From sequence record OR769032.1: a stretch of DNA of 64,000 bases. The stretch is one strand, 5' to 3'. The first letter of the stretch is position 1; every line of letters begins with the position of its first letter. A program made the translations under genes and the position numbers. This stretch comes from Escherichia phage JoYop. Positions 13,581 to 22,215 of this stretch are shown here, one piece after another. The notes below the pieces were generated by a model, which was not told where the DNA came from, searched no databases, and saw only the letters and a program-made list of their open reading frames with translations.

Positions 13581-13901
13581 TTATAGCGTAATCCATTCTC
13601 GTACTGTCTGAGTTACTACACGTTCACGGGGCTCGACTAATTCAACAGTCGGAACTGCATAATACCAGTCAGAATGATAAGAACCTGATCGAGATTCATT
13701 TACCGCTACATGTACATTATGTTTTGGACTAAAGTAAACACACTGACGATATTGGCATTTACCATCTTGCACCCAATCTTCTATTTCGACAGGTTTAAGA
13801 TAATCCGAAAAATCGAAATCATAATTTTCTGAAAATGCATCGTGGTCTTCAATAATTTCACTCAGAACTGCATCAACATCTAATTTATTTTCAATAGTCA
13901 T
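13581..13901 (-). CDS. hypothetical protein
   Basis: 106-aa ORF, ATG start. Confidence 0.45.
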   Translation of the reverse strand: MTIENKLDVDAVLSEIIEDHDAFSENYDFDFSDYLKPVEIEDWVQDGKCQYRQCVYFSPKHNVHVAVNESRSGSYHSDWYYAVPTVELVEPRERVVTQTVREWITL

Positions 13902-14560: not shown

Positions 14561-14803
14561 TTATTCCTTAATTCCTAGTACTTGTTTAAAAGTCTCATCG
14601 TAATCAAGACTTTGGCCCGTTTGTTCTTTATGTTTGTATATAATATCACTTACTTCTGATAGCATATTTTTATATGAACGAGTTAAAGCAGATTTAAGAA
14701 CGCTGTATCTATCAGGAAATTTACCATGTTCATTATAATAAGCTATTGCTAATTCACGGACTGCCTTTTCAGCAGCCTCCATATATTCTTTACGCTTGGT
14801 CAT
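14561..14803 (-). CDS. hypothetical protein
   Basis: Track start TTG; ATG at 14803. Confidence 0.4.
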
Positions 14804-15107
14804 TTTCTTCTCGGTCAAATCGGTGTTTACAATGGCGACATTTATAACGAAGATTACTATTCTGCCAATGAACTAATTGTACCTGTTCAGTGCCGCACTT
14901 TGGGCAATTAGGAATATTCTTAGAAGCTCTTTCACGTCGTTCAACCATGGCCATAATAGCATCCCATGCTGGAGGTTTAAAATCTAAATCGTCGCAACCA
15001 TGAATCTTTCCACGCATTTCCATATCATCTTCCTCACCAGCCATAATAATTTTAATTAAACTGGAATTACTTGAAGCTGCGATGTCTTCTAATAAACGCT
15101 TTTTCAT
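14790..15107 (-). CDS. hypothetical zinc-ribbon protein
   Basis: 105 aa with CPKCG...CRHCKH four-cysteine motif. Confidence 0.45.
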
Positions 15108-16033
15108 TTCAATACCTCGATGGCATTACGTAAACCATTTGCTTTGGCGGTTAAAGCCTTAAGAACTTTAGTATGCTCTTCAATTTGTTTTTCAACTTCA
15201 GCCAAACGTATATTGAGATATTCACGTTCTTCGCTCAGATTATCAACCTTTTCTACTTTAGGTTCTTTTATAACTGACTTATATGTATTAGGGTTCTTCA
15301 GTTTAATTAGAATGCGTGAACTATATAACATTGAACCATTATCTTCGGTTTCGTCATACATTTCTACTACGTCCATGATTTTTAACATCATGCGGAGTTT
15401 ATAAGACAACGAACGAATAGTTTTGTTGTGCTTATTAATTTCTCTAGAGTTCATGGTGCCGAGATTACGTGAGTAATAATAAGGAACCTGGATATTAATT
15501 AATACTGATGAACCACCTGGCTTGTGTGTTACTTCATCAGCAATAACCCAGTCCTTAACATGAACTGTATTTGTACGATCATCGCCCGCGGTGAACAGTT
15601 TGCGAGCATGCTTAAAAAGCATATTCACTTGGTCATTGAATTGGCAAGCAAATTTATCAGCAAATTTGGTTTCAGGAATGGTAGAAAACCAATCAGCCAA
15701 ATGAGTCTTTTTAACATCATTAACAATAGTAAATTCAACCAAATCGGTTATAGATGTCTCAGATTTAATGAAGCTCGGCTTCATAAAGTTTTTAATGTTC
15801 TCATGAGCTACAGTAGAAGATAACATACGAGAACGTTTAAACCATTCAAGCAAATTGCCTAACGAATGAGAATAAGCGTTTTGAGTATCTTTACAGATAT
15901 GATTTTCCTGTCCAACATATTGAAGGAAATCACGAAGAATATTATTAACTACTGCTCTGTGTCCTATCTGATAATTGCGATGTTTAGTAATAAGACTGTC
16001 AAAATAATCAATATAATGTTTACGAGTTTTCAT
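15104..16033 (-). CDS. coiled-coil-tailed protein, member A of a four-gene tandem family
   Basis: 309 aa; N-terminus MKTRKHYIDYF; C-terminal approx 50-aa heptad-rich segment ending LRNAIEVLK. Confidence 0.55.
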   Translation of the reverse strand: MKTRKHYIDYFDSLITKHRNYQIGHRAVVNNILRDFLQYVGQENHICKDTQNAYSHSLGNLLEWFKRSRMLSSTVAHENIKNFMKPSFIKSETSITDLVEFTIVNDVKKTHLADWFSTIPETKFADKFACQFNDQVNMLFKHARKLFTAGDDRTNTVHVKDWVIADEVTHKPGGSSVLINIQVPYYYSRNLGTMNSREINKHNKTIRSLSYKLRMMLKIMDVVEMYDETEDNGSMLYSSRILIKLKNPNTYKSVIKEPKVEKVDNLSEEREYLNIRLAEVEKQIEEHTKVLKALTAKANGLRNAIEVLK

Positions 16034-16087
16034 ATTCTTCTCACTTAGTTAATGATTTATGCTCCAAGCCATCCTTGGCTTTAAATT

Positions 16088-17089
16088 TTACTTAATTAAC
16101 TGTAAAGCTTGTTCAAGACGATCAAGACGATTAACAGATTCTTCCCAAATCCTTTTAGCCTGTTCATATTCTTTCTGTGCTTTATTAGAAATTTCTAGAA
16201 CTTCTTTATAAGCTTTTTCTAGTGCAATAACTTCTGGACGAATTTCTACCGGTTCAGGTGAATCATCAAGACATTCTATTAGTTCCTCAAGAGTAGTTTC
16301 TTCTTTAGGAGTATTCACAATTTCCTCGCATTTTTGTTGATAAATTTCTTTATCAGTCGGTGAGTACGCGCATTTCACTTCACGAAGGCTAATTATAATT
16401 TTATATCCTTCCCAACCACATATATTTTTGAAAGGATACGTATGAATACTTTTTACAGTTTCCATACAGCCCAAAGCCGCCTCTAACTGATGGGTTATAG
16501 TACTAGCAATTGAGAAAAATTTATTAATATTCTTTTGGTTAACTTCCGGTGTAAAAAATCCATAATTCACAAAAATAGCTACTTTATTTTTATCAAGCTC
16601 ATATTCTTTTACGATAATCATATCAGAAGCTAAAGGATGAATTTGACGATAATCACCATAACATAATTTAGAAGCTGATTTTAAAATTTGTCCTTTAAAA
16701 AGTCTGAAATTACTAATCCAACGACGAGTAAAAATATTCTCAGGGTCTTCTTTATTATTAAGATGATAAGAATTAACATCACCGAACCAATTATATCCTA
16801 CTACATCTTTGGTTCGTTTAATTTCTTTCCCAAATTTACCAAAAATATCCCGATTAACCAAATATGAAAGAAGACGAGACCCTTTAAAGGTTTCCTTAAT
16901 ATCATCTTTATCTACACGGCTAGAAATTTTACAAACTTCATGAATAAATTTACTTGAAGAAACTATACTTGCATCAATACTATTGAGCCATTGATTGATA
17001 ATAGAAAGAACACCGTGATGACTAGACATGGGTTTAACTTTATCATCAATAACGCTATTGAATGATTTGATATATTCGTTACGAGTCAT
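16088..17089 (-). CDS. coiled-coil-tailed protein, member B
   Basis: Track start TTG lies inside the promoter; ATG at 17089 (MTRNEYIKSF) with GGAGA SD; C-terminal coiled coil ending LEQALQLIK. Confidence 0.55.
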   Translation of the reverse strand: MTRNEYIKSFNSVIDDKVKPMSSHHGVLSIINQWLNSIDASIVSSSKFIHEVCKISSRVDKDDIKETFKGSRLLSYLVNRDIFGKFGKEIKRTKDVVGYNWFGDVNSYHLNNKEDPENIFTRRWISNFRLFKGQILKSASKLCYGDYRQIHPLASDMIIVKEYELDKNKVAIFVNYGFFTPEVNQKNINKFFSIASTITHQLEAALGCMETVKSIHTYPFKNICGWEGYKIIISLREVKCAYSPTDKEIYQQKCEEIVNTPKEETTLEELIECLDDSPEPVEIRPEVIALEKAYKEVLEISNKAQKEYEQAKRIWEESVNRLDRLEQALQLIK

Positions 17090-17117
17090 AATAATCTCCT
17101 CAGTAGAAAGTAAGAAC

Positions 17118-17147
17118 ATTATACCACATTCTTGTGGCAAAGTAAAC
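17118..17147 (-). promoter_or_regulatory. T4-type early promoter between family members C and B
   Basis: Minus strand GTTTAC-(18 nt)-TGG-TATAAT, overlapping the stop codon region of the upstream gene. Confidence 0.55.
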
Positions 17148-18154
17148 TAGTTCAGTGCATTTAGTGCATTGTTCAGTTTAGAACGTTGTTTTGTCAGATT
17201 TTGAACCCTTGACTGTGCTTGTTCTAACACCTTTTCAGCTTCTAACATTTCATTAGTTGCTTTAACAAGTTCATCATCTACTGCTTTAAGAGACTTCTCA
17301 ATCGCATCGGCGTGCCATTTTTCTACAGGTTTAAAATTTGAATTTTCAGTAGGAAGAAAACTCACTTTATTAAGTTTCCATGCATCTGTACTACTTGAAC
17401 TGTACATCCAACATTTAGGATCGTTGGATGAGCGATTAGTTTGAGGTTCAGGTTTTTTCTCTTGCGTAACTTCATCCTTTCTCAAATAATCATATTTAAA
17501 TGAAACGACCATATCAAGTTCATATGTTGTCGTATCTAATTTAAATCGTTCGAAATGCTGCGAAATCTTAGACTGAACAGCGGAAACAACATCCATATAC
17601 TTAAATGCTTCTGTCAATTGTGATTTAAGGCATTCACAGATTGAAAGAGAATTTTTTGTATTAGGTTTAAAGCTAATTCGTGCAGTTCTGTTATTTTCTT
17701 TTAATGGTCTTACTTCCATCTGAAGAGTATAACCATCAAATTTCAGATTCTTTAAGTTAATGTCAGAGCCTTTTAATCGACTAGCTGTGGACAAAATTTG
17801 CTTTAGTTGTTTACGAAATAGAGCAATAAATCTCCATTCAATACGATAATGATTTGGATTGAAAAATCCAGATGATAAATCGACCTTACTTTGACCAACG
17901 CCTTGAACAAATAGAGGATTTTTATAATCAATAGTTTTACAGAAATCAACGAGTTGTTCACGAGCAGTCATTTGTGTAATATACCCCGCTTTACTAAAAT
18001 GACGTAACCATTCACTGCTATTCAGATGCTTAAAGGCATGAATGGAACAATTAACTTTACCAAGGTCTAAATTATTTTCGCACAAAAATGTCATAACATC
18101 ACGAGTATAACTGGCATTACGAACAATATCTTCAATTTGAGAACGAGTTTTCAT
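17147..18154 (-). CDS. coiled-coil-tailed protein, member C
   Basis: 335 aa; N-terminus MKTRSQIEDIV; C-terminal coiled coil ending LNNALNALN. Confidence 0.55.
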   Translation of the reverse strand: MKTRSQIEDIVRNASYTRDVMTFLCENNLDLGKVNCSIHAFKHLNSSEWLRHFSKAGYITQMTAREQLVDFCKTIDYKNPLFVQGVGQSKVDLSSGFFNPNHYRIEWRFIALFRKQLKQILSTASRLKGSDINLKNLKFDGYTLQMEVRPLKENNRTARISFKPNTKNSLSICECLKSQLTEAFKYMDVVSAVQSKISQHFERFKLDTTTYELDMVVSFKYDYLRKDEVTQEKKPEPQTNRSSNDPKCWMYSSSSTDAWKLNKVSFLPTENSNFKPVEKWHADAIEKSLKAVDDELVKATNEMLEAEKVLEQAQSRVQNLTKQRSKLNNALNALN

Positions 18155-18162
18155 AGTATTCC

Positions 18163-19053
18163 TTAAGATTTAAGTAAATCAACAATTTTAATTAACTTTT
18201 CACGCTCAGATTTAGCTTTACTACTCAATCCAGATAGTCTAAAAATTTCATCATCATATTGTTGAATAGAAATATTCAGTTCTTCAATCTGTTTATTAAA
18301 ATAATCAATTTGTTCAGAATGTTTTTCGTTACTACGAACTGGTACAGGTTTTGTAGGCAATTCAATTGAACTGGATTCATCCGGGCGATAAATTAAAATA
18401 CAACTTGAACCAATTGGGCATTTTGCACCAGATGAATATTCTAATGTTCCAGCTTCTTTTAAAACTTCAAAAGCTAAGCAGAGATGATGCCCCATATTAA
18501 CATAATCTGTAGAGCGAGCTCTAATGTAATAATCAATTCCACGAGTACTAAATTTAAAGCATTTAAGGTCTTCTGTATTATTAGTCTTAAAAATCATTTG
18601 TTTATCTAGACCTTTAGCCAATCGAGCGCCTAATGCTAATAATCGTCGTTGATTTTCCCACAAATCTGTAATCATTTGATCGAATGATAATTTCGGCATT
18701 AGTCGACCATAAAGGTCATATCCTTTATTATAATTGCGAAGGATTTCACTCGCGTTAATACGAGACAATGCTCCAATTTTATTAAGGGCTTTCATAATGC
18801 GATTAGATAAACTCATTCCAGACCCATTTGTTCGCTGTAAATGTTTTTCTAATCCAAATCCAATATCAATTTTAAATTTATCTAAAATTTCAGCATGAAC
18901 ATCTCTGTCAATAACATTCAAATCCAAAGTTGGGTTAAATCTATGAAAAAATTTATCTGGCTCTCCACGACGAAATACAGTCCATTCATTCATCATTTTT
19001 TTATTAACTAAAGATTTAATTACTGCATTGACATTATTAATTACTACTGACAT
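18163..19053 (-). CDS. coiled-coil-tailed protein, member D
   Basis: Track start GTG; ATG at 19053 with GAGGAAAAT SD; C-terminal coiled coil ending LIKIVDLLKS. Confidence 0.5.
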   Translation of the reverse strand: MSVVINNVNAVIKSLVNKKMMNEWTVFRRGEPDKFFHRFNPTLDLNVIDRDVHAEILDKFKIDIGFGLEKHLQRTNGSGMSLSNRIMKALNKIGALSRINASEILRNYNKGYDLYGRLMPKLSFDQMITDLWENQRRLLALGARLAKGLDKQMIFKTNNTEDLKCFKFSTRGIDYYIRARSTDYVNMGHHLCLAFEVLKEAGTLEYSSGAKCPIGSSCILIYRPDESSSIELPTKPVPVRSNEKHSEQIDYFNKQIEELNISIQQYDDEIFRLSGLSSKAKSEREKLIKIVDLLKS

Positions 19054-19497: not shown

Positions 19498-19518
19498 ATT
19501 ATACCATCCTTGGTATAA
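19498..19518 (-). promoter_or_regulatory. early-promoter-like element
   Basis: Minus strand TTTATAC-(spacer)-GATGGTATAAT. Confidence 0.4.
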
Positions 19519-19523
19519 AGCGG

Positions 19524-20051
19524 TTATGCGAGTACCGTCTTTAACCGTTCTTCAAACTTCCGAAGAGTATTTTGGCGTTCAGCTCTTTGCTTTTTGTAAG
19601 TTTCAATACGCTCTGAAATGAGAGTGTATCGTTCATTCACTGATTCTTTCATAAAATCAGGAATTTCACGAGAAGCTTTAATCTCGTCAAATTTATCAAT
19701 AACAGCTTGCTCTTCAGCAATTAAGTTATCATACATTAAAATATCTTTCTTGATGAACTCAATATCTTCTTGAGTTACACGAGATAATTTAGATGCTTTA
19801 TCCTTTTTGTACTGTTCGTTAGTATCACGAGACCAGTGTAATGTACGATTTTTATTCGTATTTTTGTAAATTTCTACAATACCAATCTCATCAATAATAA
19901 CGATCCAATTCCAACGGGATTTGTAAATCTGTCCTCCATCAACCGTAATTTCACCTCCGATTGAGATGTCATTAAAGAACTTGCTTTGTGCTTCTGACTT
20001 AAATTTACCATCGTTGTAATTTACCAGGTTGAAAATATCTTTAGCATTCAT
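19524..20051 (-). CDS. hypothetical protein with C-terminal coiled coil
   Basis: Track start at 20111 lies inside the promoter; ATG at 20051 (MNAKDIFNLV) with GGAGG SD. Confidence 0.45.
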   Translation of the reverse strand: MNAKDIFNLVNYNDGKFKSEAQSKFFNDISIGGEITVDGGQIYKSRWNWIVIIDEIGIVEIYKNTNKNRTLHWSRDTNEQYKKDKASKLSRVTQEDIEFIKKDILMYDNLIAEEQAVIDKFDEIKASREIPDFMKESVNERYTLISERIETYKKQRAERQNTLRKFEERLKTVLA

Positions 20052-20496: not shown

Positions 20497-21216
20497 TTAC
20501 GATTCTTCTAAATGTCTTTTCTGAAAAGTTGATACCATACTACGATATGGTTCATTTGGATACCCGTGTTTTATAGCTTCCTTTGTAAATTTTCTCCATC
20601 CATATTTGGTTTCTTTCCAAAGCTCGAATAATTCATCTTCATATTGCCATATAGTTAAATGAGAACGCTTTGCAGCTTTAATTCCATTAATGTGCTTTTC
20701 TTTTACTGTAGGATTGCTTAGTGTCTTTTTAATAATATTACTAACTTTTCTAACAAAAGCTGGGTCCTTATATCGTTGTGAAGTTTTTATTGAAGTGTTT
20801 AATTTAGCTTCCGGCGTGGATGTGACCTCTTTCATCTTTTTCTTCATATGCTGTATATGATTAGGATTTTTCCATAAATTTATAGAATGCTTTTTACATT
20901 TTATCCTAGTTTCATCTGCAACCTTTCCTCCTTCACCCCCATATGACAGGTTAACACAGTTTTTTCCATATTTCAATTTACCTGCCATGATATATAATAT
21001 TTCAGCTTGTACCATTTTATCATAATTATCAAAAACTTCTAAAACCGTTTTTGATAATATGTGGTCATTTGACACTTTTACACGTTCTATATAATTTCCA
21101 CTACCAACATATGAATCATTGATGTTATTAGTTATATGTCGACCATAATAGTATTTCTTAATACCTGTCTTTAAATTTAATATTTCAGTTTTATAGATAG
21201 TAAAATATTTTTTCAT
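20497..21216 (-). CDS. GIY-YIG family homing endonuclease (Seg-like), free-standing
   Basis: 239 aa; N-terminal FTIYKTEILNLKTGIKKYYYG resembles the GIY...YIG motif pair; basic C-terminal half typical of Seg/Tev DNA-binding regions. Confidence 0.55.
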   Translation of the reverse strand: MKKYFTIYKTEILNLKTGIKKYYYGRHITNNINDSYVGSGNYIERVKVSNDHILSKTVLEVFDNYDKMVQAEILYIMAGKLKYGKNCVNLSYGGEGGKVADETRIKCKKHSINLWKNPNHIQHMKKKMKEVTSTPEAKLNTSIKTSQRYKDPAFVRKVSNIIKKTLSNPTVKEKHINGIKAAKRSHLTIWQYEDELFELWKETKYGWRKFTKEAIKHGYPNEPYRSMVSTFQKRHLEES

Positions 21217-22181
21217 TTTAATAATACCGTTTCAGCAATTTCTTCCCAATGGTTTTTGTCGGTCATAATAAAGTCAGCAAGATAAAGAGCAGTACGCAGT
21301 GAAACATTGCGTAAACGATTAACATTAACTTTCATCCATGATAATGCTTTATAAGTTTCTTCATCAGAAAGACCACGTTTTTGCATCATGTCAGTTGAAA
21401 GAATAACATCTTCAACCCTGACCATAATTTCTTCATTAGTGTGAACACCTAAATCTAAATAAACTGAGCGGGACACTAATGCTTGTAAATGTGGAGCAAG
21501 TTTAGTTCCACGGTCTAATTCACGGTCAATGTCAACGTTTGTGATAAAAACAATCGTTCCTTTAAATTCAAACTCACGCTCAATGCCTTTTTCTTCTAAG
21601 TAAGAAGATGCAGTGCTCCAGCAGACTTTACGGGTCTCTCCAGTGTCCAGAGCAGCTTTTAGAAGATTAAGAATGTCCATATCAGAGAAAACATCCACAT
21701 CATCAATTAAAAGGACAGAATTCTCTTCACGATTATTCCAGAGCTGCTCATAAAGACCGATACCAGAGATTTTACCATTAATGCTTTTATATTCAATGTA
21801 TCCAACATCATTTGCTTTATTTAAAGCTTTATCTAAAGAATACGTTTTACCAATACCTGCCGCACCAGAGATAATTAATGAACGAATGTTTCCGTTAATA
21901 ATACCATTCGTCATCATTCCCATAACATTAAATCTTTTATTAATGCGGGTTTTCATATCTTCATATGATTCTTTAACTTCTTCAACTTTTACACCATCAT
22001 ATGAAATATCTGATTTGTAAACCCAAACACCGCGACGCTTACCGTCAATTTCAACAAAAACTTTACCATCTCCTTGTGCATCTACCGGAGCATTATCTGG
22101 GAACCATTCACCTAAGAGCTCAAAAGTTCCAGAGATTTCTTTACCGAAGTAGATACCCTTATTGATAGTTACAGTTTTCAT
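21213..22181 (-). CDS. P-loop NTPase of unknown function
   Basis: Walker A SGAAGIGKT and Walker B VLLIDDVD; track start is TTG, ATG at 22181 with GGAGAA SD. Confidence 0.55.
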   Translation of the reverse strand: MKTVTINKGIYFGKEISGTFELLGEWFPDNAPVDAQGDGKVFVEIDGKRRGVWVYKSDISYDGVKVEEVKESYEDMKTRINKRFNVMGMMTNGIINGNIRSLIISGAAGIGKTYSLDKALNKANDVGYIEYKSINGKISGIGLYEQLWNNREENSVLLIDDVDVFSDMDILNLLKAALDTGETRKVCWSTASSYLEEKGIEREFEFKGTIVFITNVDIDRELDRGTKLAPHLQALVSRSVYLDLGVHTNEEIMVRVEDVILSTDMMQKRGLSDEETYKALSWMKVNVNRLRNVSLRTALYLADFIMTDKNHWEEIAETVLLK

Positions 22182-22215
22182 TTTGTTCTCCAAATCCGTA
22201 TCAGTTGATAGTTGT

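Follow-up and report, generated by a model that had tools for sequence, protein, structure and literature searches.

A tandem array of four genes of similar length in Escherichia phage JoYop raises the question of how the encoded proteins are related to each other and what they do for the phage. The array lies on the minus strand at positions 15104-19053 of the stretch of DNA analyzed here (64,000 nucleotides of sequence record OR769032.1, hereafter the window). An earlier note on this DNA had described a diversified family in which a constant, heptad-rich C-terminal tail is joined to variable N-terminal heads, and had guessed at host-interaction or anti-defense effectors. The present analysis leads to the conclusion that all four proteins are whole-length, strongly diverged paralogs that descend from one ancestral gene and have one fold. 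Detectable similarity resides mainly in the heads, which is the opposite of the constant-tail model. The array probably constitutes a tandemly duplicated family of non-essential, stoichiometric early anti-defense proteins, which would be oligomerized by the tail and would block host immune targets with the head.

The source of the window is a Tequatrovirus. The 4.2-kb stretch that holds the array shares 97% identity with Escherichia phage PaulHMueller and about 90% with T4, and 654 T4-like phage records match it. The gene order from nrdC through nrdC.9 is the same as in T4, and by this order and their positions the array genes are recognized as the orthologs of T4 nrdC.3, nrdC.4, nrdC.5 and nrdC.6. 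That the array consists of T4 genes, one of them with a published function, is already known; what is new is the superfamily relation of nrdC.3-nrdC.6 and the resulting prediction for three uncharacterized genes.

All four genes are on the minus strand, as the earlier note described, and their products are 296-335 amino acids long. The nrdC.3 ortholog (member A, 15104..16033, 309 amino acids) and the nrdC.4 ortholog (member B, 16088..17089, 333 amino acids) both match phrog_1435, with E values of 9e-114 and 3.5e-166, respectively. The nrdC.5 ortholog (member C, 17147..18154, 335 amino acids) is a DUF7235 protein (PF23882; 363.6 bits against a cut-off of 30, E 1.3e-108) that belongs to phrog_2351 and is 87-89% identical in amino-acid sequence to T4 NrdC.5. 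The nrdC.6 ortholog (member D, 18163..19053, 296 amino acids) matches phrog_2257 at E 1e-149. Database homologs of nrdC.4 carry PF26897 and those of nrdC.6 carry PF26899, and the databases hold three separate families, namely nrdC.3 plus nrdC.4 (phrog_1435), nrdC.5 (phrog_2351) and nrdC.6 (phrog_2257). A Pfam scan found no PF23882 match in NrdC.3, NrdC.4 or NrdC.6, and a strict PF23882 anti-Dsr1 family therefore takes in only member C. The Pfam, PHROGs, NCBIfam and PADLOC libraries assign no function to any of the four. Sequence searches of the PDB with NrdC.5 and with the nrdC.4 and nrdC.6 family profiles gave no real match; two of the searches yielded spurious or non-significant hits (caspase-3 at E >0.2 and designed helical repeats), and another yielded nothing.

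Three of the proteins begin with the M(K)TR sequence pointed out earlier (MKTR, MTR and MKTR), and the fourth with MSVV. Many database records give nrdC.4 a length of 343 amino acids; the ATG used there, at 17117-17119, lies inside the TATAATG -10 sequence of the gene's own promoter. The 333-amino-acid start at 17089, preceded by a GAGGAG ribosome-binding site, fits better.

Relationship of the four proteins

In pairwise BLASTP comparisons among the four proteins, the sole significant pair is nrdC.3 with nrdC.4 (24% identity over 230 N-terminal residues, E 5e-7), and the head sequences are at most 24% identical between members. Alignment of family profiles with hhalign joined nrdC.3 to nrdC.4 with a probability of 98%, and the family profiles of nrdC.4 and nrdC.5 aligned colinearly with a probability of 69-79% and an E value of about 2e-5. 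The nrdC.6 family profile, compared directly with the other three families, gave nothing significant.

Two proteins from other phages bridge these families. When 1.84 billion protein representatives were searched exhaustively by HMMER with the nrdC.3/nrdC.4 profile, only 10 proteins were returned. Among them is P0233, a protein of 315 amino acids from a Klebsiella Marfavirus (whole-library E 5.6e-4), which the nrdC.5 profile detects at 2e-13. P0233 is 96% identical to gp057 of Marfavirus F48, and F48 gp057 scored 94.6% against the nrdC.3/4 profile and 94.8% against the nrdC.5 profile. The second bridging protein, gp085 of Kanagawavirus IME523, is detected by the nrdC.5 hidden Markov model (HMM) at 1e-10 and by the nrdC.6 HMM at 2e-10, and it is similar to the Marfavirus protein at E 2e-9. 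The alignment of IME523 gp085 with nrdC.6 runs from a conserved NQRRLLALGARLAKGxDKQMxFKT helix through to the tail. Pairwise and profile alignment, which the earlier note had proposed as a check, thus yields significant links across all four proteins, partly by way of F48 gp057 and IME523 gp085.

The predicted structures lead to the same conclusion. AlphaFold models were obtained with a mean predicted local distance difference test (pLDDT) score of 84 for NrdC.4 and 77 for NrdC.6. Both models find one common set of six BFVD proteins, matched along the full length, with E values from 1e-7 to 6e-4; the six are uncharacterized proteins of about 300-370 amino acids from phages IME523, PM2, Acj9, Mineola, Acj61 and Cronus. 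In the joint alignment, the DSSP secondary-structure assignments of NrdC.4 and NrdC.6 agree in 70% of 233 columns, against a mean of 44% and a maximum of 54.5% in circularly shifted controls. Each protein starts with a helical bundle, which is followed by an alpha/beta domain; a linker that is disordered or of low confidence, and that contains a conserved proline, then leads to a C-terminal coiled-coil helix of about 49 residues. The heads are indeed variable in that their sequences have diverged strongly (at most 24% identity, as above), but they are homologous and share the same fold and are not unrelated domains.

Each protein does end in the heptad-rich tail described earlier, with an unbroken register of seven heptads over the last 49 amino acids. 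Between 86% and 93% of the a and d positions in these tails are hydrophobic, a level reached by 0-32 of 20000 shuffled sequences, and no window in the heads reaches the tail heptad score. In NrdC.3 the 49-residue heptad helix is encoded at 15107..15253 (minus strand, as are the others), with an a/d hydrophobic fraction of 0.86 that was reached by 11 of 20000 shuffles. The corresponding helix of NrdC.5 (17150..17296) has a fraction of 0.93, reached by none of 20000. For the NrdC.4 helix (16091..16237) the count is 32 of 20000, and the AlphaFold model has a single long helix at residues 285-332. The heptad region of NrdC.6 (18166..18312; 4 of 20000) is modeled as two helices, 243-272 and 278-295, with a short break between them.

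The tails are nevertheless not a shared module. The four proteins end in L..AI..LK, L..AL..IK, L..AL..LN and L..IV..LKS, and all that is common to the tails is the terminal L..A/I h..LK pattern and one proline. Tail-only comparison with hhalign gave probabilities of 0.4-4.9%, and scores of 10.6-16.5 versus 6.7-12.9 for reversed-tail controls. This similarity is not significant, and the constant tail module is therefore rejected. A constant oligomerization module attached to unrelated variable heads is unsupported on both counts, with tails that are not significantly similar and heads that share a fold and motifs.

Copy number, divergence and rearrangement of the genes

The number of family members varies from one to four among related phages. 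Marfavirus and Kanagawavirus have a single, syntenic copy, located between an nrdC.11-like nucleotidyltransferase gene and nrdC. Mosigvirus carries nrdC.6, nrdC.5 and nrdC.3; Dhakavirus and Gaprivervirus carry nrdC.6, nrdC.5 and nrdC.4; and Tequatrovirus has all four. A single-copy ancestral gene has grown to three or four copies in the T-even lineages that infect E. coli.

The family is mostly fast-evolving. Identity between genera is 22-28% for NrdC.5, 32-51% for NrdC.6 and 43-51% for NrdC.4, compared with 83-91% for NrdC. Between the window and T4, the ratio of nonsynonymous to synonymous substitution rates (dN/dS) is 0.34 for nrdC.3, 0.18 for nrdC.4, 0.24 for nrdC.5 and 0.09 for nrdC.6, compared with 0-0.07 for nrdC, nrdC.1, nrdC.8 and nrdC.9.

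The nrdC.3 gene has a history of its own. The window and T4 versions of NrdC.3 are 61-62% identical, and two alleles exist that are about 61% identical to each other. The ends of the protein are 95-100% identical to those of T4 NrdC.3 and the middle 25-70%, and the window protein is nearer to Mosigvirus NrdC.3 (75-77%) than to T4 NrdC.3 (61%). The dS value between window and T4 is 0.86 for nrdC.3 and 0.54 for nrdC.2, compared with 0.11-0.27 for neighboring genes. The high nrdC.3 value argues for an imported mosaic segment, and window positions 14790-16033 (nrdC.2 plus nrdC.3) look, from this pattern of divergence, like a recombinational import.

Natural rearrangements of the array are frequent, and broken copies occur as well. 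Phage ACG-C40 retains a 5' fragment of nrdC.5 and the tail of nrdC.3 and nothing else of the array (L003:6805-7216), and a 167-kb contig encodes an nrdC.5::nrdC.3 fusion protein (P0120). Salmonella phage Manna has an in-frame chimera, nrdC.6(1-270)::nrdC.4(251-333), with a DEI/EEI microhomology at the joint (L021:3215-4252). One IMG/VR genome has nrdC.4 as two open reading frames of 193 and 158 amino acids (L011:7971-9003), and phages G8 (BFVD A0A482N302) and T2 (A0A2Z5WKJ2) have nrdC.4 only as fragments of 155-158 amino acids. These broken copies of nrdC.4 suggest either recurrent pseudogenization or sequencing frameshifts.

Two database entries have unusual C-terminal regions. The NrdC.6 protein of Shigella phage Sf25 (P0121, 378 amino acids) contains an internal tandem duplication of about 82 residues, in which IRAHSTDYVNMGHH...NKQIEEL is repeated, and the duplication extends from the last part of the head into the first part of the tail. 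The annotated NrdC.5 of RB69 (L002:7073-7975) ends in ...SKPPWTNCLLNWTRHKLSSVMLKVL, without a coiled-coil tail. The closely related Mosigvirus 308Ecol101PP does have the NrdC.5 coiled-coil tail (L004:6000-6935), and the difference points to a frameshift near the 3' end of the gene in the RB69 record.

Anti-Dsr1 activity and a proposed family of host antagonists

The published function of one member comes from work with phage T4. Dsr1 prevents a T4 deletion mutant from growing on ECOR17, and T4 nrdC.5 expressed from a plasmid restores plating on MG1655 carrying dsr1 from ECOR17 (Srikant, Guegler & Laub, eLife 2022, PMC9391042). Dsr1, a defense-associated sirtuin, combines a SIR2 NADase domain with an Avs7-type sensor that recognizes phage major capsid proteins, and this Avs7/Dsr1-type capsid sensor is found joined to more than 20 effector types (PMC13581612). 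The window gene at 17147-18154 is the ortholog of T4 nrdC.5 and occupies the same position. The products of nrdC.3, nrdC.4 and nrdC.6 are remote paralogs with the same fold and architecture, yet they belong to separate Pfam/PHROG families. The earlier guess of an anti-defense function holds for nrdC.5, by experiment with the T4 ortholog (PMC9391042), and is made plausible for the other three by their homology, early expression, non-essentiality and surrounding anti-defense genes.

Early expression is indicated by a T4-type early promoter inside the array, which the earlier note had placed correctly between nrdC.5 and nrdC.4. The promoter (17118..17147, minus strand) has the sequence GTTTAC-N17-TGgTATAAT, is followed by GAGGAG and the nrdC.4 ATG, and serves nrdC.4 and nrdC.3. 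T4 and three more Tequatrovirus loci have the same sequence or almost the same, and the promoter can still be recognized in Dhakavirus and Gaprivervirus. As for dispensability, nrdC.3-nrdC.6 and their Bas37 orthologs are classed as non-essential on K-12 (bioRxiv 10.1101/2025.11.20.689424).

The surroundings of the array are rich in genes directed against host defenses. The gp49.2 ortholog (13581..13901, minus strand) is 97% identical to T4 gp49.2, and Gp49.2 of phage T6 is a reported inhibitor of OLD (PMC13096335). The nrdC.1 ortholog (14561..14803) and the nrdC.8 ortholog (19524..20051), both also on the minus strand, flank the array more closely; T4 nrdC.1 inhibits Septu, and Bas37_0203, to which the nrdC.8 product is 99.4% identical, inhibits Druantia type III (bioRxiv 10.1101/2025.11.20.689424). 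Like the array genes, these three are non-essential members of the early-gene cluster, have no known domains and are confined to T4-like phages. Unlike them, they are unrelated in sequence, are smaller (80-175 amino acids) and match none of the family HMMs. Bas37_0203 was considered as a member of the array and rejected, since the annotation table and the sequence identify it as nrdC.8, which the family HMMs do not match.

Sensors of the Dsr1 type are triggered by the capsid protein, which is made late in infection. The array proteins would be made early, before such late-protein triggers appear, and the tail would oligomerize each protein. The diverged head of each paralog would then attach to an immune sensor or effector of the host and block it, with the different paralogs tuned to different targets. 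Stoichiometric blocking by an oligomer is favored because the proteins are early, show no sign of a catalytic fold, and combine a coiled-coil tail with a diverged and mostly basic head (isoelectric point about 9.3 in three of the four).

Several points weigh against this picture of an anti-defense family. The nrdC.5 gene is the only member with a phenotype, and that phenotype comes from the T4 allele rather than the window allele; a literature search found no paper on nrdC.3, nrdC.4 or nrdC.6. Direct binding, oligomerization through the tail and the anti-defense roles of these three genes are what we infer from the properties just described. The structural evidence consists of the NrdC.4 and NrdC.6 models, with NrdC.3 and NrdC.5 placed by sequence, and nrdC.6 is joined to the others through an intermediate sequence and common structural matches and not directly. 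Gene-wide dN/dS values are below 1 for all members, with no sign of positive selection. Within Tequatrovirus, nrdC.6 is as conserved as its neighbors (95-99% identity in 415 records), and the divergence of nrdC.3 is in part due to mosaic import and not to fast evolution.

A more tentative proposal is that the array is a repertoire of immune-sensor blockers that arose by tandem duplication, each paralog neutralizing a different host defense. Candidate targets would be different proteins with the Avs7/Dsr1-type capsid sensor, and new specificities could come from the exchange of alleles and from in-frame chimeras that join paralogs, such as those of Manna and P0120. The expansion of the family may exemplify a phage counter-defense diversified by gene duplication, mosaic alleles and chimeras. 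It also ties three T4 genes without known function (nrdC.3, nrdC.4 and nrdC.6) to a member with an anti-defense phenotype, and makes them specific candidates for action against Dsr1 variants and other defense systems.

Two known systems invite comparison. DSAD1, which binds DSR2 directly, can be viewed as a functional analog of the proposed action of NrdC.5, in that a phage protein acts against a SIR2-type NADase defense. DSAD1 comes from Bacillus phages and targets DSR2, which is triggered by a tail tube protein, whereas the Dsr1 sensor sees the major capsid protein. Three papers describe DSAD1 as repressing or inhibiting DSR2 (PMC10973363, PMC10981675, PMC11087589). The T4 internal proteins IPI, IPII and IPIII resemble the array as a T-even family of paralogs with a short conserved module and diverged bodies that counter different host defenses: the target of IPI is a type IV restriction system, which it inhibits, and that of IPIII an unknown system of ECOR17. 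Their shared N-terminal motif is a capsid-targeting sequence, and these proteins are packaged in the capsid and enter the cell along with the DNA; NrdC.3-NrdC.6, in contrast, are early products of the phage genome that have a coiled coil at the C-terminus and whose homology extends over the entire protein.

The strongest alternative to an anti-defense family, one that we consider doubtful though deserving of attention, is that only nrdC.5 acts against host defense and that nrdC.3, nrdC.4 and nrdC.6 serve host takeover in some other way, or are copies that are redundant or decaying. A phenotype for nrdC.5 alone fits this explanation, as do the split or truncated nrdC.4 genes of L011, T2 and G8 and the loss of whole members in ACG-C40, Manna and Mosigvirus; loss and polymorphism are, however, usual for accessory anti-defense genes. 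Each member is found at full length in 553-741 phage records, and dN/dS values well below 1 indicate purifying selection on all four; both findings count against this alternative, as do the many anti-defense genes nearby. One T4 HIDEN-SEQ resampling table, the condition of which is not identified, lists nrdC.3-nrdC.6 without significant change, in keeping with the alternative. The T4 HIDEN-SEQ libraries were applied to two clinical isolates only, and Dsr1 is not among the defense systems selected.

It is improbable that the four proteins instead form one hetero-oligomer through their coiled-coil tails and inhibit one common target, for example Dsr1. In line with such a complex, the genes lie side by side and are expressed together early, and the heptads of all four tails keep one register with respect to the C-terminal LK motif. 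The a and d residues nevertheless differ among the paralogs, related phages make do with one, two or three members, and plasmid-borne nrdC.5 alone restored infection. Lastly, we regard as very improbable the view that these are nucleic-acid-binding or structural proteins, like tail-terminators or the tyrosine recombinase N-terminal domain, and not immune antagonists: the basic heads would suit it and residues 30-86 of NrdC.3 weakly match that SAM-like recombinase domain (Pfam E 0.13, NCBIfam E 0.0027), but both matches are below cut-off (13 bits versus 22.3 in Pfam, 17 versus 279 in NCBIfam), the early promoter and non-essentiality speak against a virion role, and the nrdC.5 phenotype is specific to defense.

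Hairpins and neighboring genes

On the minus strand, three small hairpins (NCCA-AGGA/AGAA-TGGN) each lie directly 5' of a -10-like hexamer, and their stems covary. The first, CCACA-AGAA-TGTGG (17123-17137), is within the promoter spacer upstream of nrdC.4. The second, AGCCA-AGGA-TGGCT (16066..16080), is in the spacer between nrdC.4 and nrdC.3 and is followed by the -10-like sequence CATAAA (TATAAA in T4), and the third, of the same form, is upstream of nrdC.7 (19501-19515). The 64-kb window contains only two 5-bp hairpins with an AGGA loop, compared with 0.6 expected by chance, and both are at these sites; both exact copies of CCAAGGATGG in the window likewise fall at these hairpins. The element is absent from the other early promoters of the window. 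The hairpins could have a regulatory role, or could be left over from the duplication of cassettes made up of a promoter and a gene.

Two neighboring genes also drew attention. The C-terminal half of nrdC.2 (14790-15107) has a CxxC...CxxC motif resembling a zinc ribbon, with several weak, sub-threshold matches to Pfam zinc-ribbon families (E 2e-4 to 9e-3). Between nrdC.9 and nrdC.10 (21213-22193) there is an open reading frame of 239 amino acids on the minus strand (20497-21216). It has no Pfam match, and its N-terminus (YYYGRH...YVGSG) resembles by eye that of GIY-YIG homing endonucleases. Since neither T4 nor Bas37 has a gene here, the reading frame looks like an inserted mobile gene.

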